Shown here: piece by piece, positions 1-18,289 of the stretch | Layout of the letters: every line of letters begins with the position of its first letter | Position numbering within the stretch: position 1 is the first letter of the stretch | Origin: a virus | Lineage: Duplodnaviria; Heunggongvirae; Uroviricota; Caudoviricetes | IMG/VR virus record: IMGVR_UViG_2529292922_000019 | DNA length: 18,835 bases | Reading direction: 5' to 3' (one strand) | Notes under the pieces: model-generated | Database searches by the model: none | Told to the model about the DNA's origin: nothing | What the model saw: only the letters and a program-made list of their open reading frames with translations | Position numbers and translations under genes: made by a program

Positions 1-1131
1 TCAAATGACCAGTTTTTTCCATTCCTTACCGCGTGCGTCGTTGTAAATATCGGTCATTTTTTGATTCGAATGGCCTAGCAAAATTTTGGTATCAACCCCC
101 TGCTCTCTGAACAATCGCTCTGATAAAGATCTCTGCTCATGGAAAGAGGGAGGGGTGCCATTAGCACGCCAGTTGTAATCCACAGAATCCCGGGCTTTTT
201 TAAATGCAACGGTTAATGTTGCTGGCTTAACCATCCCGCCGCGCTTAGCTGTCCCTTTCGCGTGATGGTGGTGCAATAGCCACGGACTAAGAACGCAATC
301 GCGGCAGGATGACACCACATCATCCAGGGTGAGATTTAATTTATCGCAACGCAGAGCCAGAGGGATGGCAATCCGGGTTCCTGTTTTTTGCTGTTCGACA
401 TGAAGATAACCATCCCGGATATCCGAAAATTGCATTTTGCAAATATCTGAAAGGCGCTGGCCTGTCATCAGTGCCAGCAGCATACCGCGCTGTAAAAAGT
501 AACCATCCTTTTCCGCTGCGTTATAAATCATCATCCACTCATCAAAAGTCAGTCGCTGTCTTGATATCCGCACCTGCGGTTTTTTTGCCGATTCTGCAGG
601 GTTAAAGCCTGGCGGGACATCGCCCGTTTGCTGAGCTTCCCGGAAAACATCGATCAGTACTTTCCTGAAAATTTGTCCCATTCTGTTATGTCCTCTGGCC
701 TTGTACTCTTCCAGTACTGATACCACATCTTTTACGGTTATGGCATCTAACGGTCTGGTGCCAAAACGTTCATCAAATACCCTGAGAGGGGCCGCTTTCT
801 GTTTCAGCGTGTTGAGTTTGATCTCGCCGTTTTCATATCTTTCCTGTTGAATTTTTCTGTAATTATTCAGAAAAATGGTAACGGTTGATGAACCGCCGGT
901 ATCACTAATAATTTTCTCCTGCAGACTGAGCATTTGTTCCATTTGCTGCCGGGCAAGACGGCTGTTCGCTTCTGCTGCAATAGTTTCTGCCAGTTTCTGG
1001 TCAATACTGCCGAGACCGTGATTTTTGCCTGTTATGGGATGCCTGTAACGCCAGTAAACTTTGTTATTTCTTTTGTCAAAATACGGAGATAATCCCGGAA
1101 CATCGGTTTTATATTTTCGCGGGCGCGCCAT
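1..1131 (-). CDS. int: Lambda-family tyrosine integrase (site-specific recombinase)
   Basis: 376-aa ORF, stop codon at 1..3 on - strand. C-terminal region shows the HxxR ... LLGHS ... TDIY arrangement typical of tyrosine recombinase catalytic residues. Position next to xis at the prophage end. Confidence 0.85.
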   Translation of the reverse strand: MARPRKYKTDVPGLSPYFDKRNNKVYWRYRHPITGKNHGLGSIDQKLAETIAAEANSRLARQQMEQMLSLQEKIISDTGGSSTVTIFLNNYRKIQQERYENGEIKLNTLKQKAAPLRVFDERFGTRPLDAITVKDVVSVLEEYKARGHNRMGQIFRKVLIDVFREAQQTGDVPPGFNPAESAKKPQVRISRQRLTFDEWMMIYNAAEKDGYFLQRGMLLALMTGQRLSDICKMQFSDIRDGYLHVEQQKTGTRIAIPLALRCDKLNLTLDDVVSSCRDCVLSPWLLHHHHAKGTAKRGGMVKPATLTVAFKKARDSVDYNWRANGTPPSFHEQRSLSERLFREQGVDTKILLGHSNQKMTDIYNDARGKEWKKLVI

Positions 1132-1357
1132 CTTCCAGTATCCTCTTCAAAGCAGGGTGATCTGTGGCGATCACCTCCGGCTTGTTTACCATTCCGACAA
1201 AGCGAGCTTGCGGATCCACTCGCCAGCGTCTTCCAACTTTTTTGGGGAGAGGAAATATCATTCCGGCTTTAGCGTATTTACTTAACGTACTCGGAGTTGG
1301 GACCGGTTCACTGAATTCCTCTTTTGCCCACTCAGTGAGCAGAATAAGTCTTGCCAT
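1109..1357 (-). CDS. xis: Excisionase-like small DNA-binding protein (Xis/DUF1233-like)
   Basis: 82-aa ORF immediately upstream of int, 3' end overlapping the int start by 23 nt (classic int-xis overlap). Small basic protein with motif KYAKAGMIFPLPKKVGRRWRV. Family assignment from memory only. Confidence 0.6.
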   Translation of the reverse strand: MARLILLTEWAKEEFSEPVPTPSTLSKYAKAGMIFPLPKKVGRRWRVDPQARFVGMVNKPEVIATDHPALKRILEDGAPAKI

Positions 1358-1421
1358 GAGCGTCGTTCGCTAATCATGGTCGCCGCCACTATAGCTGGTG
1401 GGCAACGACCGGGGTTGAACA

Positions 1422-3893
1422 TTAAAAATCAGCCTGATTCGGGATCAGTTTTTGCCAGATAACTGAAACGTATTTTGCTTGGTAACGGGCGTCATCAAGT
1501 GCATTATGGCGCTCACCTTCGAATGGAATAGCCGTTCTGGCATCGAAGTCTATGGCTTTCCCCAGCTCAACGATTGTGCGTACATCGCGATCGTTGTAGT
1601 AACGCCACGGGCAGGGGATCCCCTGCCGTTCGTATGAACGGCGCAAAATCGTGTTGTCGAAGTTGGCTCCATTTCCCCAGACCTGAACAAAAAATTCACC
1701 GGAGTTTTCGTCGATAAATTCCCGCAATTGTAACAGTGCATCATCTAACGGGATTTCATCGGTCATAATGGCAGATTGCGCTTCGCGTGATTGCTTAAGC
1801 CACCATTTAATGGTGTCCCGATCAATGACCCCGCCAGCAGTTTCCAGATCGATAGTCTTACTAAATTCCGGTCCCATATCTCCGGTTTGCGGATCGAAAA
1901 ATATTGCACCTATTGAGATGATCGGGGCATCAGGATTTTTTCCCATGGTTTCAAGGTCGATCATTAGATGGTCACACGTCCTGCTGGTGGATGTGATTTC
2001 GTGATGACCGTTCACCTTAATTGAGTGATCTGCCGTCTCGCCAGTTTCATTATCGCTATCGTGATGCTGATTGCCGTCAGTGTTCTCCTTGTGTGGATGT
2101 TCAGCGCCTTCCATTTCCTCCGGATCATCTTCCTGAACTTCAACCTGATACTCTTCATCGAATGTTTCCTGGTATGTTGCGTCGCCCATCACCGCGCCAC
2201 AATCAGGGCAGTTGCCGCCGCCGGTCTGACCGCAGGCGGTGCAGACTTTTTCCACTTCCTGTTGCGCCACTGGTTCAGGCTGTTTCGTTTCTGGCTCGTT
2301 TTGTAACGCATTTGGGCTGTTTTGTTCCGCTTTCTGGCCGTTCTGTTCCGTTTCTTGCTGGTTCTGATTCACTGAATCGCGGGTTTCAATCCCCTTCACC
2401 CATTTCGGATCATTCTGGTCGCTAATCCCTGCAACAAATTCTCCGCGAGAGGCAGCAAGCAACTTATCGGCGTCAGGCTGGCTGATATTGGCTGCCTGCA
2501 TAATTTTGTTTACTTCGTCAGCGGTAACTTTTACCGGCTCTGGTTGTGCGGTCGTGTCAGATGCACCAGTATTTTGTTGTGAACCTGAGTATGTACTGTT
2601 TTTGCGGGCGAAATATTCTTCTTTCGTGATTTCAGTAGCCCCGGCAGCCAGCGCCTTATCCAGACCAGAAAGTTTGTTTGCGCGACCGTATTTTTCGCCA
2701 TCCTTGTCGGTGAAGAGGAAGTAGAACGGCCCTTCACGCTCTACAGATGGTTCGACTTCCACTTTGCATTCGGTTTTTTCGTTGTCCGGAATTGCCGTTT
2801 CCACTGCATCAGTTTCTGGTACTGGCGACGAGAGAGTATCAGTTGCGCTCTGATTTCTTCCTTCATCTTCAAACACGCCCTTTGTAGTCAGGTATTCAGT
2901 AATGTATTTGTTCAGTGCCACAGGGTCTTTGTGAATGTCGATCGGACGTTCACGGACAAGGCCAAAAATAGTCTGGCGGTCGTAGCGAAGGGCATCAGGC
3001 TGTTTGCGCATTGATGCCGAGATACGCTTCCAGTCTTCGCGGTCGTTGTCGATAACTTCATTTTTTGCCCAGCGATGGATGCTGCCGTCAATGTTTCCGG
3101 CATCCACATCACCAGGCCAGAGAGCGTAGGCCAGTTCGTCATCCAGTGTTTTCCATGTCTGCTTGTATTCGCGATGAATGGCAGCAATGACCGGGCTGAT
3201 TTTTCCTGTTGAATTTTCAGTGTGCTGTTGATTGGCTCTGGCGCGGGCGAGATCAACAACAGACGTGTATTTTCCGGTTTCCTTGCGTTCACCTTCGCGA
3301 CGTTTTTTCCAGATGCGCATCTCTGCCTGAATTTCGGGCCATTTGGCACCAGGCTTACATTTATGCTTAACCCACCCGATGGCATGCAGCTTAAGCTCCG
3401 GATACATGGCGTTAACTTCTGGCATTTTCATCAACGCTTCAACGATATGTCCGTCGAATGTTGCCATGTCTTCCTGCAACAATTCCTGTGCGCTAATAAC
3501 CATATCAACGGTGATGTTTTCACATGTGTCGAACTTAACCATGACAGCGTTCGGTACTTCAGGGGCCAGCTTGTCAAAAGTGACGTTCATCGGATCTGAT
3601 TCAGTCTCAACCGGGACAAAGGAAGCAGACTCCTCATCCCAGCGGTTTTCCTGCATATATTCAGCATCCCAGGAATCGAGGGCAGGGCGGGGTATGCCGG
3701 GTTTATCCTCACAGACAATAAATTTATAAGCGCAGTCCTGAGCTGCAGGGAATTGCTCCAGAAATTGCCAATGAAATTTTGCGCGTGCGCGACGCTCATC
3801 ACCAGCTTCAATGGCAGTGGCCACCGCAACAGCGCTATCTTCTTTTATGGCCTGTTCATCAGGAATAGCAGCGCAAATAAAGACTTTACTCAT
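1422..3893 (-). CDS. Large prophage exonuclease with C-terminal DEDDh (DnaQ-like) 3'-5' exonuclease domain; commonly annotated exodeoxyribonuclease VIII-like in lambdoid prophages
   Basis: 823-aa intact ORF. C-terminus carries Exo motifs (IDLETMG; WGNGANFDNTIL; HNALDDARY). Central Q/N/E-rich low-complexity linker and a CxxC-x7-CxxC zinc-ribbon-like motif. Sits in the exo/bet position of a lambdoid early-left operon. Confidence 0.75.
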   Translation of the reverse strand: MSKVFICAAIPDEQAIKEDSAVAVATAIEAGDERRARAKFHWQFLEQFPAAQDCAYKFIVCEDKPGIPRPALDSWDAEYMQENRWDEESASFVPVETESDPMNVTFDKLAPEVPNAVMVKFDTCENITVDMVISAQELLQEDMATFDGHIVEALMKMPEVNAMYPELKLHAIGWVKHKCKPGAKWPEIQAEMRIWKKRREGERKETGKYTSVVDLARARANQQHTENSTGKISPVIAAIHREYKQTWKTLDDELAYALWPGDVDAGNIDGSIHRWAKNEVIDNDREDWKRISASMRKQPDALRYDRQTIFGLVRERPIDIHKDPVALNKYITEYLTTKGVFEDEGRNQSATDTLSSPVPETDAVETAIPDNEKTECKVEVEPSVEREGPFYFLFTDKDGEKYGRANKLSGLDKALAAGATEITKEEYFARKNSTYSGSQQNTGASDTTAQPEPVKVTADEVNKIMQAANISQPDADKLLAASRGEFVAGISDQNDPKWVKGIETRDSVNQNQQETEQNGQKAEQNSPNALQNEPETKQPEPVAQQEVEKVCTACGQTGGGNCPDCGAVMGDATYQETFDEEYQVEVQEDDPEEMEGAEHPHKENTDGNQHHDSDNETGETADHSIKVNGHHEITSTSRTCDHLMIDLETMGKNPDAPIISIGAIFFDPQTGDMGPEFSKTIDLETAGGVIDRDTIKWWLKQSREAQSAIMTDEIPLDDALLQLREFIDENSGEFFVQVWGNGANFDNTILRRSYERQGIPCPWRYYNDRDVRTIVELGKAIDFDARTAIPFEGERHNALDDARYQAKYVSVIWQKLIPNQADF

Positions 3894-3985
3894 TTTGTTT
3901 TACCTCATTACAGATTTAAGGGTGAACAAATCCCTGCCATTGCTGGCATATAAGAATGAAACCGGATGTTTATTACGGAACTGTT

Positions 3986-4177
3986 TTAAAGACCTGCCGG
4001 GATTTCGTTATTATCCTGGTGAATAACTTTATCGACCGGGTAACAGTTACCGGGAATTTTCTGTTCGGTTGCTGCAGTCACACACTCCTGCATTGTCCTG
4101 TGAACACTGACTGCAATATCAACTGGCTCTCCGGAAACAAGAAAAACTGTCAGAACAAGTGCAAATGCTGTATTCAT
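3986..4177 (-). CDS. ydfD: YdfD-like small lysis/toxic peptide with N-terminal hydrophobic segment (63 aa)
   Basis: Internal ATG of ORF 3986..4231 gives MNTAFALVLTVFLVSGEPVD..., recalled as Qin YdfD. Start overlaps the dicB stop as ATGA (translational coupling). Alternative upstream starts exist at 4186 and 4231. Confidence 0.55.
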   Translation of the reverse strand: MNTAFALVLTVFLVSGEPVDIAVSVHRTMQECVTAATEQKIPGNCYPVDKVIHQDNNEIPAGL

Positions 4178-4362
4178 TGCCAGCATCCTTTTTGTATCGG
4201 ACGTAAACGGGCCAGCATTGAAAGAATGCATATTTTATTTAATAGCTCCCGTTCGTGTTTTCTCTTGTTAATGGCATCTTCAGTAAATACAGGGTTACTG
4301 ATAGTGACACCAATTTCAAAACAACCTTCAGACGTATTAACGTTTGGTAATAACGTTTCCAT
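4174..4362 (-). CDS. dicB: Cell division inhibitor DicB (62 aa)
   Basis: Internal Met of ORF 4174..4467 yields METLLPNVNTSEGCFEIGVTISNPVFTEDAINKRK...KGCWQ, matching remembered Qin DicB almost residue for residue. Lies directly downstream of DicF as in the dicB operon. Confidence 0.8.
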   Translation of the reverse strand: METLLPNVNTSEGCFEIGVTISNPVFTEDAINKRKHERELLNKICILSMLARLRPIQKGCWQ

Positions 4363-4533
4363 TATCGCGTCCTCAACAATGAATTTTGTGATGTGGTGCC
4401 TGGTGCCTCCAGGTGACGTTAACCAGTTAACAATTAACGCCGGATACAGAGAATCCACCCATAACACTGTTTTTGGTTTTAACTGTTCCGCGTGCGCTCA
4501 GCCGCATTCACCGCATCACAAAATTCACTTTAA

Positions 4534-4589
4534 AAACGGCGGCAGAGCAGTCACGGAGTAAAACTGATACCGCCAAACGTCACCAGAAA
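4534..4589 (-). ncRNA. dicF: DicF small regulatory RNA (ftsZ-targeting sRNA) with intrinsic terminator hairpin
   Basis: Reverse complement of 4537..4589 reads TTTCTGGTGACGTTTGGCGGTATCAGTTTTACTCCGTGACTGCTCTGCCGCC, matching the remembered 53-nt DicF sequence, followed by a T-run (A-run 4532..4536 on + strand). Located immediately upstream of dicB. Confidence 0.8.
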
Positions 4590-4920
4590 ATTGATAACAG
4601 AGGGCGTTGCAGCGGGGTTGTCGCTTAAGCGTATGGTCAACCTGACAACCCGGTGTCCTCAACGGGGAAGGAATAACCCCGCCATACTTACCGCCGCGCC
4701 ATTTCGCGGAGTGCCACAACCGGAAGCGCACGGTCGAACTAAATTTAACGACACCGTACAGAGAGACCAATTTCGCCGTGCGCTTTCGCGTTATGCCCTG
4801 ACTTTTCAGGGACATATCCTTTCAGTAAACTGTCAGTGCCGGATGTTCACCCGTGTCCGGCGCACGCACTCCACCTGACCCGTGGAGAACTCCTTAATTA
4901 CCAACCCTCAGGAGGGTGAA

Positions 4921-5178
4921 ATGGATAAAAAGCAAATTGAGGCCCTGCAATCTATTATTGAAAAACAAGATGAAGCTATCAGGATTCTTTCATATCGCAC
5001 TGATATGATACTAAATATGCTTTCTGCATTAACGGCTGCGCTTGGTGGTACAAAAACAAACGTATACCGCGAAGTTGTTATTCAACAGATAGATAAATTT
5101 GAAAAACCATACCAGGTATTAATGCTCATCTTGCAGAACAAGAGAAAGACCATGCTCTTATGGCAATTTCTTCAGTAG
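4921..5178 (+). CDS. Hypothetical small helical protein (about 85 aa), antisense to the leftward early operon
   Basis: Strong SD (AGGAGG, 5-nt spacer) before ATG at 4921. AT-rich. 3' end overlaps the convergent 133-aa gene by 21 nt. No recognisable domain. Confidence 0.4.
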   Translation: MDKKQIEALQSIIEKQDEAIRILSYRTDMILNMLSALTAALGGTKTNVYREVVIQQIDKFEKPYQVLMLILQNKRKTMLLWQFLQ

Positions 5179-5559
5179 CTCTCCCGAAAGTTGAGTAGTT
5201 TTAATTGTTGTTTTGAAATAATCACTGCTTTCACATTTGAGTGATTTCATGGCAATCCAAATGCGGGCCTCTGTGCCTGCATTTGGTTCCAGTTGCTGTA
5301 GACGTTTTGCGTCTTCCAAAAGTAAGGCGATAATGTGTTTCAGCTTCTCATCATTTGCTTGATTCTTGTTTTCAGGCGAATTCTGTCCGCCGAATAGGCG
5401 CTTCTCTTCATACAGACCTATAAAGGCACGACGCACGTTACCGGATATAGTATCGATGGTTTCTTTTTCTACGGTACTCAGGTCAAGAGTCGCCAGTTGA
5501 GAGCGAACCACATTCGATGCCATTTCCTGGAATGGTACTGGTAAATCTTTAAATTCCAT
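5158..5559 (-). CDS. Hypothetical protein (about 133 aa, alpha-helical), second gene of the repressor-proximal leftward module
   Basis: ORF 5158..5571; preferred start ATG at 5559 preceded by GAGG with 6-nt spacing. The ORF-track start at 5571 lacks an SD and overlaps the upstream stop as TGATG. AT-rich. No recognised family. Confidence 0.5.
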   Translation of the reverse strand: MEFKDLPVPFQEMASNVVRSQLATLDLSTVEKETIDTISGNVRRAFIGLYEEKRLFGGQNSPENKNQANDEKLKHIIALLLEDAKRLQQLEPNAGTEARIWIAMKSLKCESSDYFKTTIKTTQLSGELLKKLP

Positions 5560-5570
5560 CGTCAACCTCA

Positions 5571-5723
5571 TCAGTCAGTGTTTCTGGTTAACCAGCGACG
5601 CGCGCCAGCTTCAGTTTTAAACGTTTTGCTTCTGGTATACGTCATCGCGGTAAACGTGCCGTCCTGGTTGGGGAACACGCCACATACCAGAGATTCGTTG
5701 TTGCCAAGATTGAGCATATCCAT
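5571..5723 (-). CDS. ydfA: YdfA-like (DUF1391-type) small protein, about 50 aa
   Basis: Internal ATG preceded by GAGG-N5. Product MDMLNLGNNESLVCGVFPNQDGTFTAMTYTRSKTFKTEAGARRWL resembles remembered Qin YdfA. First gene downstream of the leftward operator region. A longer 77-aa form starting at 5804 is possible. Confidence 0.5.
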   Translation of the reverse strand: MDMLNLGNNESLVCGVFPNQDGTFTAMTYTRSKTFKTEAGARRWLTRNTD

Positions 5724-5904
5724 GTTGACCTCATTTCCCCTTAACGCCGGGGTAGCGGAACAAAAACCTGCTGCATAGTTATTAAAGTTGAACCCTGCCG
5801 TCATGTTCTTACGCCTCGGGCTGGCTACTTAACCCCTGACCACTGCCTGGTAACTCGAAGTATTGCCCTGCATTCTGTGGGGCGGGGTGGGTTGGTATGA
5901 AAAG

Positions 5905-5950
5905 AAGGATACCCATAGGTATTTAAAAGGTAAATACCCATGGGTAAATT
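5905..5950 (-). promoter_or_regulatory. OL-like operator pair (TACC-N4-GGTA palindromes) overlapping a putative leftward early promoter
   Basis: Palindromes ATACCCATAGGTAT (5909..5922) and TACCCATGGGTA (5935..5946, perfect). On the - strand a -35 TTTACC (5948..5943) and -10 TAAATA (5925..5920) with a 17-bp spacer overlap these sites. Confidence 0.45.
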
Positions 5951-5988
5951 TTTGCGGGGTCTTAACTGGTGACTAGTTGTTTGGTGAG

Positions 5989-6407
5989 CTATGATGCGTT
6001 TTGTGCTTTCTTTTTACGGATTTCTTCGTAGATCATATTGTAATACTGTTTTTTCTCTTCAAGAGTTTTTAATAATTTATCCGCTTCACTTTCTGGCAGT
6101 TCGTCTAAGAGATCTAAAAAAATACGTTGTCGTGGCGTTAGAACCCTTGTTTCATAACTGGAGGCTGTGTTCGTTGATGATGAAACGATACCATCCATCC
6201 ATCCCCGGGGTAACCCAAAGGACTCTTCGATAATCTCCACCATATCATCAGCGATCCGTTTTTTCCCTTTTTCCCCTCTGGGTACAACATTCTTGATACA
6301 TAAGAAGGCTCGCGCCCGATCTTTCTGGCCACGTTAACCGCTTTACCATCGCATTTCTCATCACGAATTTTGATGAGTTGCTGTCGTCTAAATTCATATT
6401 TGTCCAT
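5989..6407 (-). pseudogene. DicA/cI-like HTH repressor, reading frame interrupted by a 1-nt deletion in a homopolymer (possibly a sequencing artefact)
   Basis: Two overlapping ORFs (6138..6407 with the HTH; 5989..6243 with a DicA-like C-terminus LTPRQRIFLDLLDELPESEADKLL). One extra T in the T6 run 6259..6264 would fuse them into a single protein of about 139 aa. Confidence 0.65.
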
Positions 6408-6425
6408 AGGTAAATAATAGATGCG

Positions 6426-6478
6426 ATTACCGCAAGGTAAACAACCTGTGGGTATTGACTTTTGTTTACCTGCGGGTG
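6426..6478. promoter_or_regulatory. OR-like operator cluster: three TACC-N4-GGTA-type sites between the repressor and cro-like genes
   Basis: TTACCGCAAGGTAA (6427..6440), AACCTGTGGGTA (6443..6454) and TTACCTGCGGGTG (6464..6476). A -35-like TTGACT lies at 6455..6460. Same half-site architecture as the sites at 5909..5946. Confidence 0.45.
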
Positions 6479-6507
6479 TTCTTTGCTGTGTTTACTAAGG
6501 AGTAGCT

Positions 6508-6789
6508 ATGGAAGAATTAAGAATATTTCTCAATTCTCTTTCGTCAGATGAACAGCGTATGTTTGCATGCGAGTGTGGTACCAGCATCGGTTATCTAAGA
6601 AAGGCATTGAGTAAAGGTCAAGTGTTAGGGGCATCGTTATGTGTCCTTATTGAGCGAGCCAGTAATGGTGAAGTTACACGTCAGCAACTAAGGCCTTTTG
6701 ATTGGATGAATATTTGGCCCGAGCTGGAAGATACCAAAACGTTAACACAACCACTTTCTAGGAGCTTGATTCATGAAAATCAAGCATGA
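6508..6789 (+). CDS. Cro-like / YdaS-family DNA-binding protein
   Basis: 93-aa ORF divergent from the repressor, SD AGGAG upstream. Pattern ...GTSIGYLRKALSKGQ...LRPFDWMNIWPEL resembles YdaS-family Cro analogues (recalled). Confidence 0.6.
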   Translation: MEELRIFLNSLSSDEQRMFACECGTSIGYLRKALSKGQVLGASLCVLIERASNGEVTRQQLRPFDWMNIWPELEDTKTLTQPLSRSLIHENQA

Positions 6790-7198
6790 ACACATCCGCA
6801 TGGCGATGAATGTCTGGGCGCATCCGGACGGCGAAAAAGTGCCGGCTGCGAAAATTACCAAAGCGTATTTCGAGCTGGGAATGACGTTCCCGGAACTGTA
6901 TGACGACAGCCATCCGGAAGCCCTGGCCCGTAATACCCAGAAAATTTTCCGTTGGCTGGATAAAGACACCCCTGATGCTGTTGAAAAAATGCAGGCTCTG
7001 TTACCGGCGATCGAAAAGGCGATGCCGCCTTTGCTGGTGGCCCGTATGCGCAGCCACAGTTCTGAATATTACCGTGAGATCGTCGAACGGAGGGATCGGC
7101 TGGTGAAGGATGTCGATGATTTTGTTGCGTCAGCGGTTGTTTTGTATGACCAGATGAATCGCGGCGGCCCGGCAGGGAATGCTGTGGTGATGCACTAA
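6773..7198 (+). CDS. YdaT-family protein (functional analogue of cII; toxic when derepressed in Rac)
   Basis: 141-aa ORF overlapping the cro-like gene end. N-terminus MKIKHEHIRMAMN...GMTFPELYDDSHPEALARNTQKIFRW matches remembered YdaT. Confidence 0.65.
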   Translation: MKIKHEHIRMAMNVWAHPDGEKVPAAKITKAYFELGMTFPELYDDSHPEALARNTQKIFRWLDKDTPDAVEKMQALLPAIEKAMPPLLVARMRSHSSEYYREIVERRDRLVKDVDDFVASAVVLYDQMNRGGPAGNAVVMH

Positions 7199-7220
7199 AA
7201 GCACGGTGTTCGGGGGTTTT

Positions 7221-8183
7221 ATGAGCAGCAAGCTTCATGGTCTTGTCTGGGAAGGGTGCGCCTTCACCGGCATGATCTTATCCAGGGTGGCGGTTATGGC
7301 CCGTCTTGCAGACTACAGCAATGACGAGGGCGTGTCATGGCCTGCCATTGAAACTATCCGGCGTCAGATCGGTGCAAGAAGTGAATCCACAGTGAAATCG
7401 GCTATTGCAGAACTGGCGAAAGAGGGCTGGCTGACGAAGGAAGAGCGTAAGGTCGGTGGGCGTAATGTAAGCAATATCTATCGGCTTAATGTGGAAAAAC
7501 TCGAAGCAGCTGCGGCGGCGGCGCGTGAGTCATATAAACCGAAAAGAAAAATTAGCCCGGCAAAAAATGACCCGTTAACAGTTGACCCGTCAAATATTGA
7601 CCCCTCAACGGTTGACCCGTCAAATTTTGATGGATCAACTGTTGATAAAAAACTGCCGATTAGGGGGGCGATGATTGACCCCGATCCGTCAGTATTAAAA
7701 CCTGATCCGTCAGATAAAAGATCTTCTTGTCCGGACGCTTCGCAACCGGACCCGCAGACGGCTGAACAGGATTTTTTAACCCGACACCCTGACGCGGTTG
7801 TGTTCAGTGCGAAAAAACGCCAGTGGGGAAGTCAGGAAGATTTGGTGTGCGCACAGTGGATCTGGGGACGAATCGTGAGTCTTTACGAGCAGGCGGCCAG
7901 CTATGATGGCGAGATCGCTAGACCGAAAGAACCCAACTGGACAGCATGGGCCAATGACGTTCGCACAATGCGGATGCTGGATGGCAGAACTCACAGACAA
8001 ATTTGTGAAATGTTTGGGCGTCTCCAGCGGGATTCGTTCTGGGTAAAAAACATCATGAGTCCGGCAAAACTCCGGGAAAAATGGGATGAACTGGTTATCC
8101 GCCTGGGGCGTTCGCCTGCGCAGCGTTGCGTGAATCACATTTCTGAACCGGACACTGAAATTCCGCCGGGCTTCAGGGGGTAA
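7221..8183 (+). CDS. Phage replication initiation protein (O-like; N-terminal winged-helix, internal iteron-encoded linker)
   Basis: ORF 7206..8183 (GTG); preferred ATG at 7221 with G-rich SD. N-terminal HTH-like segment. Contains the direct DNA repeats at 7567..7655 that encode repeated TVDPSN(I/F)D peptides, as in lambda O/ori. Confidence 0.6.
   Translation: MSSKLHGLVWEGCAFTGMILSRVAVMARLADYSNDEGVSWPAIETIRRQIGARSESTVKSAIAELAKEGWLTKEERKVGGRNVSNIYRLNVEKLEAAAAAARESYKPKRKISPAKNDPLTVDPSNIDPSTVDPSNFDGSTVDKKLPIRGAMIDPDPSVLKPDPSDKRSSCPDASQPDPQTAEQDFLTRHPDAVVFSAKKRQWGSQEDLVCAQWIWGRIVSLYEQAASYDGEIARPKEPNWTAWANDVRTMRMLDGRTHRQICEMFGRLQRDSFWVKNIMSPAKLREKWDELVIRLGRSPAQRCVNHISEPDTEIPPGFRG
7567..7655 (+). 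repeat. Iteron-like direct repeats inside the replication gene (putative origin)
   Basis: Four tandem copies of TTGACCC(G/C)T(C/T)AA at roughly 15-bp period (7567, 7582, 7597, 7612), followed by degenerate copies and an A-rich stretch. Further GATCCGTCAG repeats at 7686..7713. Confidence 0.5.
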
Positions 8184-8223
8184 GTGTTAATTTCTGGTCA
8201 TGAGGTAATTTTCAGGAGGGCTT

Positions 8224-8646
8224 GTGGCAAAAGTTTTTACACAAGAAGAGCGGGAAAAAATTAAAGGGCAGGTTGTTGAACTCGTACGCCAGAGTGGGCG
8301 CGAGACGTTACGACAACTGGAAACTAAAACTGGGGCAACAAGATATCTGATGAGCGTTCTGGCCAGAGAGCTGGTTGCCAGTGGCGATGTATACAACTCT
8401 GGTTACGGGTTATTCCCGTCTGAACAGGCGCGTAAGGACTGGCAAAATGCCCGTAAAAAGCTCTCAAGGGCAAAGCTGAAGAAACCATCTGCGGTTGATC
8501 CGGACCTTATCTGGTCATTACCTGACGGAGAAATACGTCGCTACGACAGGCGTCAGAACATAATCTGTCGCGAGTGCCGGAAGAGCGAAGCTATGCAGCG
8601 CGTACTGGCGTTTTATCAGGGGAATTTTGAGGAGGTGGTGCGGTGA
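8224..8646 (+). CDS. Hypothetical phage protein (140 aa)
   Basis: GTG start preceded by AGGAGG. Follows the replication gene in the same orientation. No recognisable domain. Confidence 0.5.
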   Translation: MAKVFTQEEREKIKGQVVELVRQSGRETLRQLETKTGATRYLMSVLARELVASGDVYNSGYGLFPSEQARKDWQNARKKLSRAKLKKPSAVDPDLIWSLPDGEIRRYDRRQNIICRECRKSEAMQRVLAFYQGNFEEVVR

Positions 8647-8889
8647 GTGAATCAAAATGCCAGGTTAATGGCAACAAGATAGAACCATGTGCAGCACTGG
8701 CAAAGTCCCTTGAGCGTGATGCTGAATACACGATGCGAAAAGGTCTGCTGATATACAAAATCTGAAATGAGAGTTTAACTCGCGGTCCTGATTTTGTGAT
8801 GTTGCGTTCCGGTGAATTTTCTAAATTACCAGTTCGGGTTTCATTTTGTCCGTTCTGTGGTGAAAGTCTGAAAACGTGGGAGAACAGAA

Positions 8890-9201
8890 ATGAATGAAAT
8901 TAAAGAAATACCAGTAGTACGTGATGAATATGGCTGCTGGACGCATCCTGAATATGAAAAATTCTGTGACGGTCGGGAATATATTTCAACGGAAGAGTTT
9001 AACGCCTGGATGGAGGAAAATAATCTTCAATACGTCCTCTGCTTCAGAGATGAAGGATGTGCTGACCTTGATGCGTGTGATGCTGATATTTCTGCATGGG
9101 AACCGGAACGACCAGAGGGCAATGGATGGTTTATTGGTTCAATACATGACACCGAAGATGGCCCGGTTTGTGTATGGCTGAGAAATAAGGTCGAAGCATA
9201 A
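8890..9201 (+). CDS. Hypothetical phage protein (103 aa, Cys/acidic-rich)
   Basis: ATG start with upstream GGGAGAA. Same orientation as the early-right operon. No recognised family. Confidence 0.5.
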   Translation: MNEIKEIPVVRDEYGCWTHPEYEKFCDGREYISTEEFNAWMEENNLQYVLCFRDEGCADLDACDADISAWEPERPEGNGWFIGSIHDTEDGPVCVWLRNKVEA

Positions 9202-9333
9202 AGGCTATAAACCGACTAACAACTAAATACTGAAGATTTAAATCAGAAACGATTTTTATTAAATCCTTAACCGGAGGGATTCCTGCACCCTCAAATCATC
9301 AGGAGGCCGCCCGAAAGGGCGGTGGAGATAATA

Positions 9334-9855
9334 ATGGGAATAACTAAAGAACGATTGTTGGAAATAGCAAACCTTAGTGATTGGGCATTAAGTGATGAGA
9401 GAATTGTTTCTCCTCATGCTTATGAGTCAGTTACAAGTATAGAAATAACAACAATGGCTAGAATGCTGCTTGGTTATTTCAAAATAGAAAATAAAAAACA
9501 GATGGATAGTAATGTTGATATATGTGAGATTTTAGACGATTGGGGGGCTTGGGTTGTGGCTGGTAATAGTTCTATTGATTGGCAGGAAATAGCTGATAAA
9601 TATAAAAATGTTGTTCCTCATGGTAAAAAATCACGTCGTCAGTGCAGCAATGATGAAGGGCGAATTATTGACATTAGTATCCTTAGGTTAGAAAGATATA
9701 AGCAACAAGAATATGAGTTAATTGTTGCTCATTTCGTGATTGGTTTATCTCTTCGTGCTATTGCAAAGCAACAAGGATGTTCAGATGGAACAATTCGTAA
9801 AAGATTGCAAAAAGCCTTAGGTTTTTTGACTGGATATATAGCAATTACCAGTTAA
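9334..9855 (+). CDS. HTH transcriptional regulator with C-terminal sigma-70 region-4/LuxR-like helix-turn-helix (possible late-gene regulator or cargo regulator)
   Basis: ORF 9322..9855; preferred ATG at 9334 with GGAG at 6-nt spacing. C-terminus YELIVAHFVIGLSLRAIAKQQGCSDGTIRKRLQKALGFL is a classic region-4-like HTH. AT-rich codon usage. Stop codon overlaps the stop of the convergent nuclease gene (TTAA 9852..9855). Confidence 0.55.
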   Translation: MGITKERLLEIANLSDWALSDERIVSPHAYESVTSIEITTMARMLLGYFKIENKKQMDSNVDICEILDDWGAWVVAGNSSIDWQEIADKYKNVVPHGKKSRRQCSNDEGRIIDISILRLERYKQQEYELIVAHFVIGLSLRAIAKQQGCSDGTIRKRLQKALGFLTGYIAITS

Positions 9856-10493
9856 GAGTCAGCGGTTTTTTTACCAGTGTAATGGTATAAGGATACTCCC
9901 ATGTGTCTTACATGATATGGAAGCGCTGTTGCTGGATGCTTTGTGATACTCTTAAAGCGGAGGGGAGAGCCTTCCGCTTCAATTTCTGCGTCCGAAACGG
10001 TCGTAGAGAAAAATTCTTTCCATTCATTGAATTTTACTGCTGATTTGTCAGACTTTATATAAATTAGAATTCCTCCATGATCGTCACGTGACGTACCCGT
10101 GCCGTAACGTTCGGTTAGCTGAATCCAGCCATTATGAATAGATTTGGGGCCTCTCCATAATTTTGCTTCACCGATCCATTCGAATTTTCCGAATTGATGT
10201 TTAACTAATAAATCAACGTGACCGCCATGTTGAGTATCATGTTCAACATCATAAAACCTACCTTTCAGGAAATTTTTGATCGACGCTGTTAGCTCGTCCT
10301 CTCCCCACTTAGCATCTTGATAGAAGTGTTTGTCATTTTCTAAATTCTGAATAGCGTCGTCTAAATCTTCATAGAGTTGCTTTACAAAAATATTTTTGTC
10401 TGCAGCTAATTTTCTTTGAACCATTCCCCTAAATTCAGGATCCATTCTAATTAATGATTGAAGGTCTGCAGTACAGATGTTTACATCACTCAT
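9852..10493 (-). CDS. PD-(D/E)xK nuclease-fold protein (about 213 aa), last gene of the AT-rich operon
   Basis: ORF 9852..10556; likely start MSDVN at 10493, overlapping the upstream gene stop by 8 nt (ATGAGTGA). Motif ...DVEHD...GGHVDLLVK-x10-EWIGEAKLW fits the D...(D/E)xK arrangement of restriction-endonuclease-like nucleases. Confidence 0.55.
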   Translation of the reverse strand: MSDVNICTADLQSLIRMDPEFRGMVQRKLAADKNIFVKQLYEDLDDAIQNLENDKHFYQDAKWGEDELTASIKNFLKGRFYDVEHDTQHGGHVDLLVKHQFGKFEWIGEAKLWRGPKSIHNGWIQLTERYGTGTSRDDHGGILIYIKSDKSAVKFNEWKEFFSTTVSDAEIEAEGSPLRFKSITKHPATALPYHVRHMGVSLYHYTGKKTADS

Positions 10494-10914
10494 GCAGACT
10501 CTCCAAAAGACTCGAAGGAGTAAAGTATGGATAAAGATACTGGCTAAAATTATCAACCAATTCGCCAGTTTCTGGATGGTAAAAACTTCCTGTGTCTAAA
10601 GCATAGGAAATAAGATCATCTTCAACTGGTATTGGTTCTTCCGTTAAATTATCAATGTATTGAAAATGCATATCCAATAGATGTGCTTTATAGCTAGATA
10701 AATAATCAGTTGCTTTTATTAGCAGGATATAGTCATCTTTCGTATCAGTTAGATAGGTTAAACCATTGATAAGGGTTTTGTATGTAAAGTGATTGATATT
10801 TTTAGCATCTTTACTAACCAGAAAAAGAAAAAGATCACGACACACACTGCGAACAGGATCATTAAAATCCTGCTCTATTTGCGTGATAATGTCGTGATAT
10901 ATACTCTTTTTCAT
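10486..10914 (-). CDS. Hypothetical acidic protein (142 aa), middle gene of the AT-rich operon
   Basis: ATG at 10914 overlaps the upstream frame stop as ATGA. C-terminus overlaps the downstream nuclease start. Acidic, Tyr-rich, no recognised domain. Confidence 0.5.
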   Translation of the reverse strand: MKKSIYHDIITQIEQDFNDPVRSVCRDLFLFLVSKDAKNINHFTYKTLINGLTYLTDTKDDYILLIKATDYLSSYKAHLLDMHFQYIDNLTEEPIPVEDDLISYALDTGSFYHPETGELVDNFSQYLYPYFTPSSLLESLHE

Positions 10915-11201
10915 TTATGGCCTGATGATCTCGCTCTTCTTTTCTCTTCACAGGACTTAACAGAATCCAATATTTTTTCAACAATAAATATAATCGAATC
11001 AATGTTGTTACAGTTCTTCGCAATTGCTTCATGCAACCTAATTCTAGGATTATCAAGCATTGTCCTTTTTCCTGGTAATATTAACTCTACTGATAAAATA
11101 TGTGAAGAACTTTGTGGTAAATCCCAAATTTTTCCCAACTTAAACTTTGTCAATATTGGGCTTGCGGACTCTCCACTATGATGGTAAACATCTTGACGCA
11201 A
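10911..11201 (-). CDS. Hypothetical ORF; probably the C-terminal continuation of the upstream 222-aa gene rather than an independent gene
   Basis: The reading frame is open from 11363 down to 10911 with no ATG or SD (first candidate start is TTG at 11201). It overlaps the stop of the upstream gene, whose frame differs by one base at an A6 run (T6 on + strand, 11352..11357). Confidence 0.35.
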   Translation of the reverse strand: MRQDVYHHSGESASPILTKFKLGKIWDLPQSSSHILSVELILPGKRTMLDNPRIRLHEAIAKNCNNIDSIIFIVEKILDSVKSCEEKRRARSSGHK

Positions 11202-11332
11202 ACACTTTTGACTTGGTTTGAGTTTTAAAGAACTTGTATTGCCATCTGAGGTGATAAAAGATACATGAGAAATTCTGCCATCTACTTTTTCGTAAAGATC
11301 TTGTATTGAACCAAATAATTCAAGAGGATTGT

Positions 11333-12001
11333 TTAAAATAACGCCAGCTTCTTTTTTATAAATTTAGCCACAAGGTATTGTTGAGGCTGTGATTCACTTC
11401 TTGGAAGGATAGATAAATCAATCGTAAGAATTAATATTTTTTCTGCAGGCATTAGCATGATGGTATTAAAGCATTGCGTGACTTGGCGTGTTTTGCATTT
11501 TATTTCTCCACCATTAGCACGTAATTCCATACCCGCATCGCTAAGATGTGTTGGGTCAAGCTCTATCACTTCAGTGTAATACGCTTTGGATAAAAAAACA
11601 GCAGTGTCAATTTGTTTATCACGAATGATATCTTGACGTAGTTCAGCAAAATGCAGCTCAGTATCAGCAACTAACAGCTCCTCTCTGGATAAAGGAATTG
11701 GGTATTTTTCTGAGAAGGGGCTATTGTCCTTTTTCTGATTTGTGAAAATTGTTTGTAATTTTGCTACGTCTTCATCGGTGATTCTATAAATAGAAAGTAA
11801 TCGATTCCCGCTAAAAATTAAACCTTTCCAGAAATCGTCGATTCTGTCTTTTAGGTCGGGATTATGCTGAACTACACTATTTACACGTTCAATAAAAAGG
11901 GGTAATCCTTGGGCCGTTACACCCAGTGATGAACCAAGAAGCTTACGGGTGTTGCGCCAGCCAAAGCGTGAATTGATGTTTTTTACTGTTTGCTCAAGCA
12001 T
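11333..12001 (-). CDS. Hypothetical protein (222 aa), first gene of the AT-rich operon; possible HEPN-like Rx6H motif
   Basis: ATG at 12001 preceded by AAGGAAG (the ORF-track GTG at 12007 is less likely). Contains ERVNSVVQH (R-x6-H). AT-rich. If the homopolymer at 11352..11357 is corrected it would extend to about 365 aa. Confidence 0.5.
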   Translation of the reverse strand: MLEQTVKNINSRFGWRNTRKLLGSSLGVTAQGLPLFIERVNSVVQHNPDLKDRIDDFWKGLIFSGNRLLSIYRITDEDVAKLQTIFTNQKKDNSPFSEKYPIPLSREELLVADTELHFAELRQDIIRDKQIDTAVFLSKAYYTEVIELDPTHLSDAGMELRANGGEIKCKTRQVTQCFNTIMLMPAEKILILTIDLSILPRSESQPQQYLVAKFIKKKLALF

Positions 12002-12347
12002 TAACACTTCCTTAATTTTCCCTTAACAATTTAGGGTGCTAAACTTTTTTGCGCAGTTTACATAAAAAAATAGTGCGTACGCAAAAACTATCTAACATGA
12101 TGAGCTTTAACCGGGAAATTTGTATATGTTGTGAGCATAAAGTTGGCTGAGAAATCTAAAACGGGTAGAATGACTGCGGGTGCTTGAGGCTATCTGTCTC
12201 AGGCATGAACACCAAAAGGCAGATAGAGAAAAGCCCCAGTTAACATTACGCGTCCGGCAAGACGCTTAACATTAATCTGAGGCCATATCTATGCTCTACA
12301 CACGTAGGTTAGCCTCTTACGTGCCGAAAGGCAAGGAGAAGCAGGCT

Positions 12348-12503
12348 ATGAAGCAGCAAAAGGCGATGTTAATCGCCCTGATCGTCATCTGTTTAACCGT
12401 CATAATGACGGCACTGGTAACGAGGAAAGACCTCTGCGAGGTACGAATCCGAACCGGCCAGACGGAGGTCGCTGTCTTCACAGCTTACGAACCTGAGGAG
12501 TAA
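12348..12503 (+). CDS. hokD: Hok/Gef-family type I toxin (51 aa), HokD/RelF-like
   Basis: MKQQKAMLIALIVICLTVIMTALVTRKDLCEVRIRTGQTEVAVFTAYEPEE, near-identical to remembered HokD. AAGGAG SD upstream. An in-frame upstream ATG at 12291 gives a 70-aa extended ORF. Confidence 0.85.
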   Translation: MKQQKAMLIALIVICLTVIMTALVTRKDLCEVRIRTGQTEVAVFTAYEPEE

Positions 12504-12571
12504 GAGACCAGGCGGGGGAGAATCCCTCGCCACCTCTGATGTGTCAGGCATCCTCAACGCACCCGCACTTA

Positions 12572-12596
12572 ACCCGCTTCGGCGGGTTTTGTTTTT
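12572..12596 (+). terminator. Rho-independent terminator downstream of hok
   Basis: Hairpin CCCGC-TTCG-GCGGG (12573..12586) followed by TTTTGTTTTT. Confidence 0.55.
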
Positions 12597-12668
12597 CCTG
12601 GCATTCTGGTTTACAATTCGCACGCCAGCCTGAACAACTGGCACCTGCTGCGCCAGCAGAGACAACCG

Positions 12669-12947
12669 ATGGCGCACGATACCAAATTACACAATTCTGA
12701 TGATTCTGCCGTCTTTGCCAGCAGGCACGGGCGGCGTTCCCGCACTTTCAAATCTGACTGGTTCCAGCATCCCCCATGCACTGAAGAACAGGCCGAGTGG
12801 CTAATTCAGTGCTACCGCAGACACGGATACGAGATTAAGAAAGCCCTCAGCCTCGATTATCGTCACTGGATAATCTCCGTCAGGCTTCCTTACTCCGAAC
12901 GACCACCGCGTCCGTCCCGCACATTCCAGCAACGCATCTGGAGGTAA
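12669..12947 (+). CDS. Hypothetical protein (92 aa) in the position occupied by rem in Qin
   Basis: ORF with ATG start immediately upstream of the DUF968 gene. Identity with Rem not verifiable from memory. Confidence 0.45.
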   Translation: MAHDTKLHNSDDSAVFASRHGRRSRTFKSDWFQHPPCTEEQAEWLIQCYRRHGYEIKKALSLDYRHWIISVRLPYSERPPRPSRTFQQRIWR

Positions 12948-12948
12948 C

Positions 12949-13998: not shown

Positions 13999-14010
13999 AA
14001 GAGGTGACTG

Positions 14011-14370
14011 ATGCTCATAGATTTGGTTTTACCTTACCCGCCGACGGTGAACACTTACTGGCGACGCCGTGGCAGCACATATTTTGTATCAAAAGTCGGT
14101 GAGCGTTATCGCCGTGATGTGGCGCTTATTGTTCGCCAGCAGCAACTGAAATTAAACCTGTCCGGAAGGCCGGCAATAGAAATTATTGCAGAGCCACCGG
14201 ATAAGCGCCGTCGTGACCTGGACAATATCCTGAAGGCACCACTGGATGTACTGACGCATGCGGGGCTGCTCATAGACGACGAGCAGTTTGATGAAATTAA
14301 TATTGTGCGCGGTCAGCTTGTTCCTGGTGGGCGGTTGGGGATAAAAATCACAGAACTGGAGTATGCATGA
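14011..14370 (+). CDS. rusA: RusA Holliday-junction resolvase
   Basis: 119-aa ORF with GAGG SD. Motif PPDKRRRDLDNILKAPLDVLTHAGLLIDDEQ and overall pattern match remembered RusA. Typical position just upstream of Q. Confidence 0.85.
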   Translation: MLIDLVLPYPPTVNTYWRRRGSTYFVSKVGERYRRDVALIVRQQQLKLNLSGRPAIEIIAEPPDKRRRDLDNILKAPLDVLTHAGLLIDDEQFDEINIVRGQLVPGGRLGIKITELEYA

Positions 14371-15056: not shown

Positions 15057-15104
15057 AAGGCATATATTTCATGCAAATCTGATATTTTGCCGATTTTGTA
15101 CGTG

Positions 15105-15137
15105 ATGGCAAAATCAAACAAAACCCGCCCACAAGCG
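15105..15137 (+). terminator. Rho-independent terminator after the Q-like gene
   Basis: Stem CCCGC (15114..15118) / GCGGG (15125..15129) with 6-nt loop, followed by T7 and preceded by an A-run (potentially bidirectional). Confidence 0.6.
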
Positions 15138-15213
15138 GGTTTTTTTGTGCCACTTATCTCGGATAGACATGGTGAATGCGCTGGTGGAGGAGATAAGGGT
15201 GATTTTTGTATGC

Positions 15214-15327: not shown

Positions 15328-15328
15328 A

Positions 15329-15533: not shown

Positions 15534-15619
15534 AAATGTCTCACAATTCAGACGGTTGACAGTTGTCTGTTTTGCGGGGAGTTTGTTAAGTAAGCGACTC
15601 GTCAGAACCGTATTGATAT

Positions 15620-17191
15620 TTACTGAGAGCTCAGATCAACTTTCCAGGGCAACAGATCGCGTACCCGGTTTGCCGGCCAGTCCTGGATATGTTCAATGAC
15701 GTAACGCAGCCACTTTTCTGGCTCCACATTGTTCAGACGGCATGTGCCGATCAGCGAGTACAACACCGCCGCATGTTCACCACCGCTGTCGGAACCCGCG
15801 AACATCCAGTTTTTCCGGCCTACGGCCACTCCCCGTAAGGCGTTCTCTGCGATGTTGTTGTCGATTTCCACCCAGCCATTACTGCAGTACACGTTCAGTG
15901 CATCCCACTGTTTCAGCAGGTATGCGAACGCTTTTGCCGTATCTGAGTGACGCGACAGTGTTTTCATCTGTTGCTGTATCCAGTCATACAGTGACTGCAT
16001 CAGTGGCGCGGCTCTGGCTTTTCTTGCCGCCAGACGCTGTTCTGCTGAACAGCACCGGACCTCTGCCTCGATGGCATACAGTTCACCGATACGCTGCAGG
16101 GCTTCCGTGGTGATGTAGGTGGGCGCTCTTGCATGCACATCGTGGATTTTTCTCCGGGCATGAGCCATACACGCGGCTTCCGTTATTCTGCCGGATTCGT
16201 ATAACGCCCGGTAACCACCGTAAGCATCGGCCTGAAGCACACCGCTGTAACCGGCCAGGTGATTTTGTGGATGGATACCTTTCCGGTCCGGACTGTACGC
16301 GAACCAGACCGCCGGGGGCATCTGTGAACCGGCGTTACGGTCATCACGGACGTAGACCCACAGCCGGGCTGTCCGGGTTTTACCGCTGCCCGGCTCCTGG
16401 ACCGGGACGGGGATATCATCAGCATGGACTTTACCGGGCATCAGCACATACTGGCGCAGGACGTCATACAGCGGCTCCAGCAGTTCAGCAACAGCACCTG
16501 TCCAGCGCCCCAGTGTGGCACGGCTCAGCTCCACGCCCTGACGACGGTATATTTCTGACTGGCGGTATAACGGCAGATGGTCTGCATATTTCCCGGTGAC
16601 AACATGGGCCAGAAGCCCCGCTCCGGCATAACTGCGTGCAATGGGTTTTGAAGGTACTGGTGCCTGCACGATATGGTCGCACCGGCAACAGGCCTGTTTC
16701 GGACGTTGTGTTTCGATAACCTTAAAGGCGCTGCTGATAAGCTCCAGTTGCTCTGACACATCACATCCCAGAGAACTGAGTTCACCACCACAGGCAGGAC
16801 AGCATTCCTCTTCCGGCCGGATAACCCGGGTTTCACGGGGAAGTGAGGCCGGTAACGGTTTACGGGCTGAAGACTGGCGCAGGGCGGATGGCAGTACCGG
16901 GTCATATTGCTCACCCAGCGTTTCCGCCATTTCTTCCTGAAGTGCGCTGATTCGCTCCTGTGCTTCCTGTATCTGCCGTTCGGTTTTTGCACGAAGTTTT
17001 TCTGAGCTTTTACCGAACTGCATACGTTGCAGTTTCGCAACCAGCGCCTTCAGCCGGTTGATTTCGGAAGCATAAGCCGCCACCCGCTGTGAGAGCAGGC
17101 GGTTGTATTCAGCCATCTGGCGGATGGTGTCCTGTTGCGTCTGCAACAGTGCCCGCAGGCGGGCGTTCTCATGAGCAAGTGAGGTGTCCAT
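15620..17191 (-). CDS. tnpC: IS66-family transposase TnpC (orf3)
   Basis: 523-aa ORF with N-terminal coiled-coil/leucine-zipper region and a Cys cluster, typical size and layout for IS66 TnpC. Confidence 0.85.
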
Positions 17192-17210
17192 ATCCTCACT
17201 TTACAACGGG

Positions 17211-17558
17211 TTATATGCGGATTCCAGCGCGTTCCGTTCGTTTCGGGTGCTTCCAGTTGATACCTTCAAGAAGCATGGATAACTGAGCCGGAGTAAGGTG
17301 CACCTTGCCGTCACGGGTGACTGGCCAGACGAAGCGGCCCCGCTCCAGGCGTTTGGTGAAGAGGCACAGTCCGTCACTGTCAGCCCACAACACTTTTATC
17401 TGGTCACCCCGGCGTCCGCGGAAGATGAACAGGTGTCCGGAGAACGGGTCATCCTTCAGGACGTTCTGAACTTTTGATGCCAGGCCGTTAAAGCCATTTC
17501 GCATATCGGTGATACCTGCAACCAGCCAGATACGCGAACCTGCAGGGAGAGATATCAT
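17211..17558 (-). CDS. tnpB: IS66-family TnpB (orf2)
   Basis: 115-aa ORF MISLPAGSRIWLVAGITDMRNGFNGLA..., characteristic of IS66 orf2. Confidence 0.85.
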   Translation of the reverse strand: MISLPAGSRIWLVAGITDMRNGFNGLASKVQNVLKDDPFSGHLFIFRGRRGDQIKVLWADSDGLCLFTKRLERGRFVWPVTRDGKVHLTPAQLSMLLEGINWKHPKRTERAGIRI

Positions 17559-18042
17559 CAGTGGCTGCTCCCTTTTATTTCGCGGATAAGTGTCTGTAAT
17601 AACGCCGGCGTCAGTTTACCTTTAAGCCTGAGAGTTCCGGCCGGCAGAACCAGCTCACAACACAGACTGTCGGACGGTGTATTTATCTGCTCTGGTTCCT
17701 GTGCGGGGGCCGGGATTTTATTATCCGGCTCCGGCGTTAACGTCACGGGAAGCAGTGCCGGCATATTTTTCCGGAAGGCAGCAGGCCACCTTTCCGGTAT
17801 TGATGGCGCCAGTTGAAGAGCAGGTTATCGTTGATTCCGTTTTCCCGGGCGATCTGCGCCACACAGGCTCCGGGCTGCAGTGACTGCTCCACTAAGGCGA
17901 TTTTAAACTCATAAGGGAAGTTGGGCCGCCGGGGACGTTTTTTTACCACGGGGGCTTCGGATATAACGGTGCTTTCAGGACGTACGACTGGTACCGTGGA
18001 AAATTGTCCGTAAAGGCAGGCATCAAGTTCCTGCTCCGACAT
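17558..18042 (-). pseudogene. tnpA: IS66-family TnpA (orf1), apparently split by a -1 frameshift at a T5 run (start codon uncertain)
   Basis: HTH-containing frame (..IARENGINDNLLFNWRHQYRKG..) ends at 17743, and a second frame (17558..17764) overlaps the tnpB start as ATGA. One extra T at 17765..17769 would fuse them. Confidence 0.45.
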
Positions 18043-18289
18043 GCCTGCGGGCAAAGGCCACGAAAGGCCAGCTCTCCGAAAGCGCACGAACATACTACAA
18101 ACTGTTGATTTTGGTACACCCAGGCGACGCCCGGCCACAACCCGGGGTAAATGTTCTTCAAAGTGAAGACGTAAAGCTTCAGTGATCCAGGTCCGGTGTT
18201 TCATACGATAGTGTCCATTAAAAATGATGGACATTATTTTTTGTAGAGCCGGAGGAAACAGACCAGACGGTTTTAAATGAGCCGGTTAC

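Follow-up and report, generated by a model that had tools for sequence, protein, structure and literature searches.

Homopolymer errors in the E. coli DEC1B draft genome as the very probable cause of apparently broken prophage genes

RESULTS

A lambdoid prophage at ompW and its run-length differences

The stretch of DNA analysed here (the window, 18,835 nt) is part of the Escherichia coli DEC1B draft genome: positions 1333-18835 are 100% identical to AIEX01000028.1 (GCA_000249095.2), a draft whose proteins carry ECDEC1B_ locus tags. The region is a lambdoid prophage integrated at ompW in the enteropathogenic (EPEC) lineage of E2348/69, and EPEC O127:H6 E2348/69 is also the complete genome nearest to the window. 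The prophage contains int, xis, an exonuclease gene, dicB, DicF, a repressor gene, a YdaS-like gene, YdaT and replication genes, as well as a three-gene cargo unit, hok/sok, DUF968, RusA, Q, tRNAs, the insertion sequence ISCro1 and the end of ISEc13. Over positions 1-15589, we found 19 substitutions and four gaps relative to E2348/69. All four gaps are one-base contractions of A or T runs in the window, located at 5102 (A5 against A6), 6259, 11352 and 12592 (T5 against T6).

Among the tRNAs, ARAGORN predicted a third one at 15329-15404 (Lys, anticodon ttt), between a tRNA with a CAT anticodon and tRNA-Arg(tct). Rfam at its gathering threshold reported the two flanking tRNAs only, and the RefSeq annotation of E2348/69 lists only tRNA-Ile and tRNA-Arg.

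The repressor gene is split at a T6 run

The repressor gene lies on the minus strand at 5989..6407, in the cI/RacR position, and is read as two fragments, with an N-terminal ORF of 89 aa (6138-6407) and a C-terminal one of 84 aa (5989-6243), parted at the T6 run at 6259..6264. A preliminary description of this DNA had placed a one-base break in this very run, which proved exact: intact genomes carry T7 here (on the coding strand A7, with the codons GGA AAA AAA CGG), and restoring one T gives a protein of 139 aa that is identical to WP_000362153.1. The missing T is the sole difference between the window and two intact genomes in an alignment of 441 bases. The run should in all probability read T7, and the -1 frameshift would be spurious.

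Could the frameshift instead be real and be offset by transcriptional slippage or ribosomal frameshifting on the A-run, so that the full-length protein is still made? On the coding strand, the surroundings of the run are indeed lysine-rich (AAA AAA). However, no recoding is needed to keep the common allele in frame, six A's are below the length for efficient RNA polymerase slippage in E. coli, and nothing in the data calls for such a mechanism, to which we assign practically no probability.

The same description called the repressor 'DicA/cI-like', a label that holds by position but not by sequence. The intact 139-aa protein matched no Pfam family at E<=0.01, neither HTH_3 nor S24 being found, and its PDB sequence matches were insignificant; PHROG 5736 ('transcriptional regulator') matched it over its full length and PHROG 12107 ('transcriptional repressor') weakly. 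The gene thus named occupies the cI/RacR/DicA position, yet its sequence does not show it to be a homologue of DicA or cI. It is divergent from a YdaS-like gene (6508-6789, plus strand), whose product matches Pfam YdaS_toxin below the cut-off, and from YdaT (6773-7198, plus strand), which matches Pfam YdaT_toxin; DicF and dicB lie to its left. A further profile of unknown function, PHROG 27486 (59 positions), covers only residues 1-50 of the repressor (6258-6407) and ends at the A7 tract, which suggests that enough N-terminal fragments cut at this run have entered the databases to make up a family of their own.

Just downstream of the repressor stop, at 5910-5946 on the minus strand, we noted a hairpin with a 16-bp stem and a T-rich tail that looks like an intrinsic terminator. 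Its arms hold TACCCATGGGTA-type palindromes, which can also be read as operators, and a sub-clade SNP at 5929 falls in its loop.

How widespread is the T6 allele? A 621-base query around the run matched 822 of 5426 complete E. coli genomes, with a match length of 622 bases in all matches listed. When genomes were judged by identity band, T7 was present in 819 of these 822, and it was also found in every assembly of the same clade outside the batch of drafts described below. An exact 80-base query centred on T6 matched 2/822 complete genomes and had zero matches in the phage collection. The remaining records with T6 mostly look like errors themselves, because they show further homopolymer deletions nearby. 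Indeed, MLI104K2 (NZ_CP116925.1), one of the two complete genomes with T6, also carries A7>A5 in the repressor gene and a frameshifted neighbour gene, and the Logan contig ERR4562137 combines T6 with several homopolymer gaps within 2 kb. This contig was the only match in an exact lookup of the 89-aa frameshift product, and on account of its own gaps we rejected it as independent support for that product. We likewise rejected database entries for an 84- or 83-aa C-terminal 'phage repressor' as instances of the frameshift; the contigs that we fetched carry T7, and the entries are, to judge from these contigs, gene-caller start choices.

Run-length variants at 6259 recur in the unrelated MLI104K2, ETEC1703 and ERR4562137, as would be expected if the A7/T7 tracts were prone to slippage, with cultures mixing run lengths, drafts catching the shorter state and a phase-variable repressor; the match of PHROG 27486 to residues 1-50 alone, ending at the tract, would fit as well. 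Against this speak the rarity of T6 (only two of the 822 complete genomes) and the error-like surroundings of the run in MLI104K2 and ERR4562137. Moreover, the variants at 6259 are contractions only, T8 was never seen, no two-way polymorphism was found, and T6 is absent at 11352 from all 14 complete genomes that have that run. A 7-base tract is also short for efficient phase variation, and we regard such switching as extremely unlikely.

The early-right promoter in the window clade

In relatives of the prophage, divergent promoter-like sites lie between the repressor gene and the YdaS-like gene. The one ahead of the YdaS-like/YdaT operon is sigma-70-like (TTGACT, 16 nt, TATTCT; window 6455-6482). 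In the clade of the window, A>G at 6478 turns the -10 element into TGTTCT, and the site is lost to a consensus scan. E2348/69 shows a change of the -35 element from TTGACT to TTGGTT instead, and in the draft AIEY01, position 6478 is A and position 6481 shows C>A (TATTAT). The 6478 SNP is real, as it is present in the independent assembly GCA_900448265.1 (see below) and in all sibling assemblies except AIEY01; an exact 80-mer with this SNP matched 0/816 complete genomes. Taken at the level of sequence, these changes suggest that the early-right promoter of this prophage lineage has been repeatedly tuned or silenced.

We considered the change at 6478 as compensation for a real loss of the repressor and rejected this, because the independent assembly, identical to the window in its SNPs, has the same SNP together with an intact repressor. 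The preliminary description had also reasoned that, if the frameshift were real, loss of the dimerisation domain would derepress toxic genes (dicB/dicF and ydaT-like). This scenario is moot; bearing on it as well, the rightward promoter of the clade already carries the -10 A>G change.

A second T6 run truncates a cargo gene

The first gene of the cargo unit (10911..12001, minus strand; PHROG 12777, unknown function) is truncated to 222 aa at a second T6 run (11352..11357), which should probably also read T7. The frameshift would again be spurious: with one T restored, the protein has 363 aa and is identical to WP_000893384.1 of E2348/69. T7 was present in 14/14 complete E. coli genomes with the cargo gene and T6 in 0/14. 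An exact-protein lookup found the 222-aa product on record only in five NCBI draft assemblies and two Logan assemblies, re-assemblies of the SRA runs SRR070669 and SRR490662 that likewise carry T6 at 11352. If either of these runs were not flow-based (e.g. Illumina), T6 at 11352 would be real in that DNA. The annotated start of the gene is the ATG at 12001, and a fragment read from the GTG at 12007 had no exact match.

The cargo unit as a whole (9852-12001) consists of three minus-strand genes (363, 142 and 197 aa) between a Q-like antiterminator gene and hok/sok. Its three proteins fall in PHROGs of unknown function; PADLOC gave no convincing match for the cargo genes, and neither Pfam nor PDB searches of these genes and of the repressor were informative. 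In other strains, IteA/IteS (MLI104K2) or a kinase/PP2C phosphatase pair (ETEC1703) occupies the corresponding place upstream of hokD/DUF968. Because of these other genes, 9852-12001 looks like a variable cargo hot spot, possibly related to defence.

Run-length changes in ISCro1 and in two further runs

ISCro1 (15590..18289, minus strand, 2700 nt, tnpA-tnpB-tnpC) is 99.7-99.8% identical to annotated ISCro1 copies and shows their tnpA-tnpB-tnpC organisation; the 523-aa product of the element in sibling loci has IS66 domains, as expected of a DDE_Tnp_IS66 transposase. The tnpA gene of this IS66-family element (17558..18234, minus strand) is split into products of 163 and 68 aa. Intact ISCro1 tnpA has 678 nt, encodes 225 aa and carries T6 at the run that is T5 in the window (17766..17770), and the corrected 225-aa product is identical to WP_001339397.1. 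The preliminary description had attributed the splits in the cargo operon and in tnpA to the same kind of event as in the repressor gene. Both genes are indeed one T short, but the tnpA run lies at 17766-17770 and not at 17765-17769. The tnpA frameshift, probably spurious too, is private to this contig, and the exact T5 80-mer was found in 12/1929 records only.

Compared with the closest ISCro1 copies, the element in the window has two substitutions, the contraction at 17766 and two expansions. The latter are T6 at 18237..18242, in the non-coding IS end, and T4 at 18271..18274, also at the IS end, where all other ISCro1 copies examined have T5 and T3, respectively; both would be over-calls. 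These two T runs lie within the last 55 nt before the IS junction. We also observed that the IS copy of JML285 (NZ_AP024114.1) has 13 gap openings relative to that of the window, and that in some RefSeq genomes labelled complete, the short-run alleles are surrounded by numerous further homopolymer indels and by frameshifted genes. As JML285 and MLI104K2 are such genomes, the rare short-run alleles in the complete-genome set are suspect.

No 8-bp target-site duplication flanks ISCro1 in the window (left flank TTTGTTAA, right flank GCTCAAAA). Late genes (for a SASA-domain protein and a holin) come after the element both in AIEW01 and in the independent assembly with the same SNPs as the window; what follows it in the window is a 216-nt fragment (18290-18506), tail-fibre-like by eye, and then the ISEc13 end. 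This junction reflects either a genuine deletion in DEC1B mediated by the IS or a mis-join of the draft at a repeat.

Two more contractions complete the set. An A5 run at 5102..5106, which should probably be A6, breaks a 92-aa ORF (4921-5198, plus strand; WP_000358771.1) by a frameshift that would likewise be spurious, and a T5 run at 12592..12596, probably T6, is intergenic, downstream of hokD/sok. Both are sporadic among the sibling drafts. Thus, the three sites named in the preliminary description were all confirmed, but four more runs (5102, 12592, 18237 and 18271) had been missed.

T6 alleles follow a batch of drafts, not the SNP phylogeny

Are these alleles a property of the clone or of the assembly? 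The decisive comparison came from GCA_900448265.1 (UFZD01000005.1, a 5.1-Mb contig), which shows 0 substitutions relative to window positions 1-13889 and 8369-18289. It differs from the window only at seven homopolymer runs, of which five are shorter in the window (5102, 6259, 11352, 12592 and 17766) and two are longer (18237 and 18271). At all seven sites, GCA_900448265.1 carries the run length of E2348/69 or of other ISCro1 copies. A and T runs of at least 5 bases cover only ~3% of the window by arithmetic from run counts, and for 7/7 length differences to fall inside homopolymers is far beyond chance.

The combination of T6 at 6259 and T6 at 11352 is limited to the drafts AIEW, AIEX, AIFA, AIFB and AIFD. 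Relative to the window, AIEW01, AIFA01, AIFD01 and AIFB01 show mostly single-base homopolymer indels, unrelated to their few SNPs. A5 at 5102 is present in AIEX and AIFB only, T5 at 9822 in AIEW, AIFA and AIFB, and T5 at 12592 in AIEX, AIEW, AFJB and ADUL. These sporadic sites are homoplastic and in conflict with the SNP tree.

The two T6 alleles themselves, shared by all five drafts, show the same pattern as the ~ten SNPs that separate the drafts from E2348/69, and T6 at 11352 is also present in the two Logan assemblies. It could thus be argued that 6259 and 11352 are genuine mutations in five DEC strains and mark real pseudogenes in a decaying cryptic prophage, with errors only at 5102, 12592, 17766, 18237 and 18271. 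Other 7-base runs are mostly correct in the same drafts, and loss of the repressor could be tolerated given the -10 A>G of the clade's PR-like promoter. However, both the SNP-identical 5.1-Mb assembly and AIEV01, which likewise matches the window in its SNPs and carries A6, T7 and T7 at 5102, 6259 and 11352, are T7/T7. So is ADUL01, yet it has the private SNPs 5936G and 8991A in common with the T6/T6 draft AIFD01, and so is JBNHSV, yet it agrees with the T6/T6 draft AIFA01 in 5939T, 9035G and a divergent exonuclease segment. JBNHRT and AIEY01 carry T7 at both sites, and AFJB01, JBNHSW and NJMD carry T7 at 11352, the only site of the two within their fetched loci.

Because SNP-matched sisters have T7/T7, the T6 alleles track one batch of five drafts and not the SNP phylogeny; a real origin would therefore need the same two deletions to have arisen, or to have exactly reverted, several times independently. 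The alleles were neither congruent with the flanking SNPs nor present in independent assemblies of the lineage, as a genuine lineage pseudogene would be. Furthermore, the 222-aa cargo product is confined to the five batch drafts and the two Logan runs. When one base is added at each of the coding sites, the repressor, cargo, tnpA and 92-aa ORF products become 100% identical to intact homologues, and we saw no secondary decay in any of these four corrected genes, nor degenerative changes downstream of the frameshifts. Genuine mutation at 6259 and 11352 is, in our view, very unlikely. Most unlikely, too, is that the A7 tract (codons 48-50) is a slippage hot spot and that a sub-population, or the sequenced DNA stocks, of the five DEC strains are truly A6. 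Were this so, the repressor would be reversibly off, a state that the clade could tolerate given the -10 down-mutation of its rightward promoter.

Miscalls rise with run length

Taking GCA_900448265.1 as truth, we scored the five sibling drafts for miscalled runs. The miscalls amounted to 0/238 for 5-mers (0%), 9/121 for 6-mers (7%) and 12/31 for 7-mers (39%), and all 21 were under-calls. The rate per site was uneven, ranging from 0/5 through 1/5, 2/5 and 3/5 up to 5/5, which indicates a strong context dependence; the 5/5 at the two T7 sites forms one end of this continuum. Indeed, other 7-base runs in the same drafts were miscalled in at most 1/5, and 6259 and 11352 in 5/5, and hence the error at these two runs must be systematic and strongly tied to its context, not random.

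DISCUSSION

Here, we found that the frameshifts in this prophage are very probably consensus errors of the draft assembly and not mutations or pseudogenes. This judgement is based on the independent assemblies, which are identical to the window at every other base and have full-length runs and intact genes. The preliminary description had suspected systematic homopolymer under-calling, and the restriction of all differences to seven run-length sites, the length dependence of the miscalls and the batch-bound T6 alleles bear this out. It had also offered correction to 7, 7 and 6 Ts as the mark of an artefact, and precisely these lengths are carried by the SNP-identical independent assemblies.

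We propose that long A and T homopolymers in the DEC1B draft were called one base short. The chemistry would be flow-based, with a signal per base that flattens as the run grows; the drafts of the DECA collection were reportedly made with 454 Titanium (DECA genome announcement). Under-calling would have turned T7 into T6 in the repressor and cargo genes, T6 into T5 in tnpA and A6 into A5 in the small ORF, and gene callers would then have split or truncated the affected genes. Pure under-calling is countered by the differences at 18237 and 18271, which are over-calls. The corrected sequence, as read from the independent assembly and the other ISCro1 copies, would be T7 at 6259, T7 at 11352, T6 at 17766, A6 at 5102, T6 at 12592, T5 at 18237 and T3 at 18271.

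The frameshifts themselves hold no new biology, and their value is one of caution. Four seemingly broken genes of this draft (repressor, cargo gene, IS accessory gene and small ORF) are probably artefacts, and conclusions on pseudogenes, loss of immunity or IS inactivation drawn from drafts of the DEC1A/1B type call for a comparison with later assemblies of that clone. As a rule for these assemblies, runs of up to 5 bases can be trusted, and A or T runs of 6 or more cannot.

How does this case compare with known systems? In 454 consensus sequences, errors favour A/T runs, become more frequent in longer runs and give rise to artificial frameshifts (Luo et al. 2012, PMC3277595). The miscalls described here resemble those of 454 and Ion Torrent data in being confined to homopolymers, A/T-biased and length-dependent, and in splitting ORFs that are mended by one base. 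They differ in that two sites are wrong in 5/5 drafts, beyond the usual stochastic picture, and in that two short runs near the IS end are over-called. Slipped-strand pseudogenes and contingency loci likewise involve a single-base change within a mononucleotide run, but the alleles found here are spread without regard to the SNP phylogeny, and independent assemblies of the clone lack them.

In the immunity region, the position of the repressor recalls DicA/DicC of the Qin prophage and lambda cI/Cro, that is, a lambdoid immunity region controlling transcription on the dicB/DicF side and on the replication side. Unlike these, the repressor of the window has neither an HTH_3/XRE nor an S24 peptidase domain, and its PDB matches are insignificant. 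The arrangement is also that of the RacR-YdaS-YdaT module of the K-12 Rac prophage, with a leftward repressor divergent from a YdaS-like/YdaT pair, here in a lambdoid prophage with dicB and DicF. In K-12, silencing of RacR is lethal through YdaS/YdaT (PMC5700377, PMC5700373), and for this reason a genuine break in the repressor gene would have come as a surprise. The 139-aa repressor lacks a Pfam domain and is likened to RacR by its position; once the error is corrected, its gene is intact.
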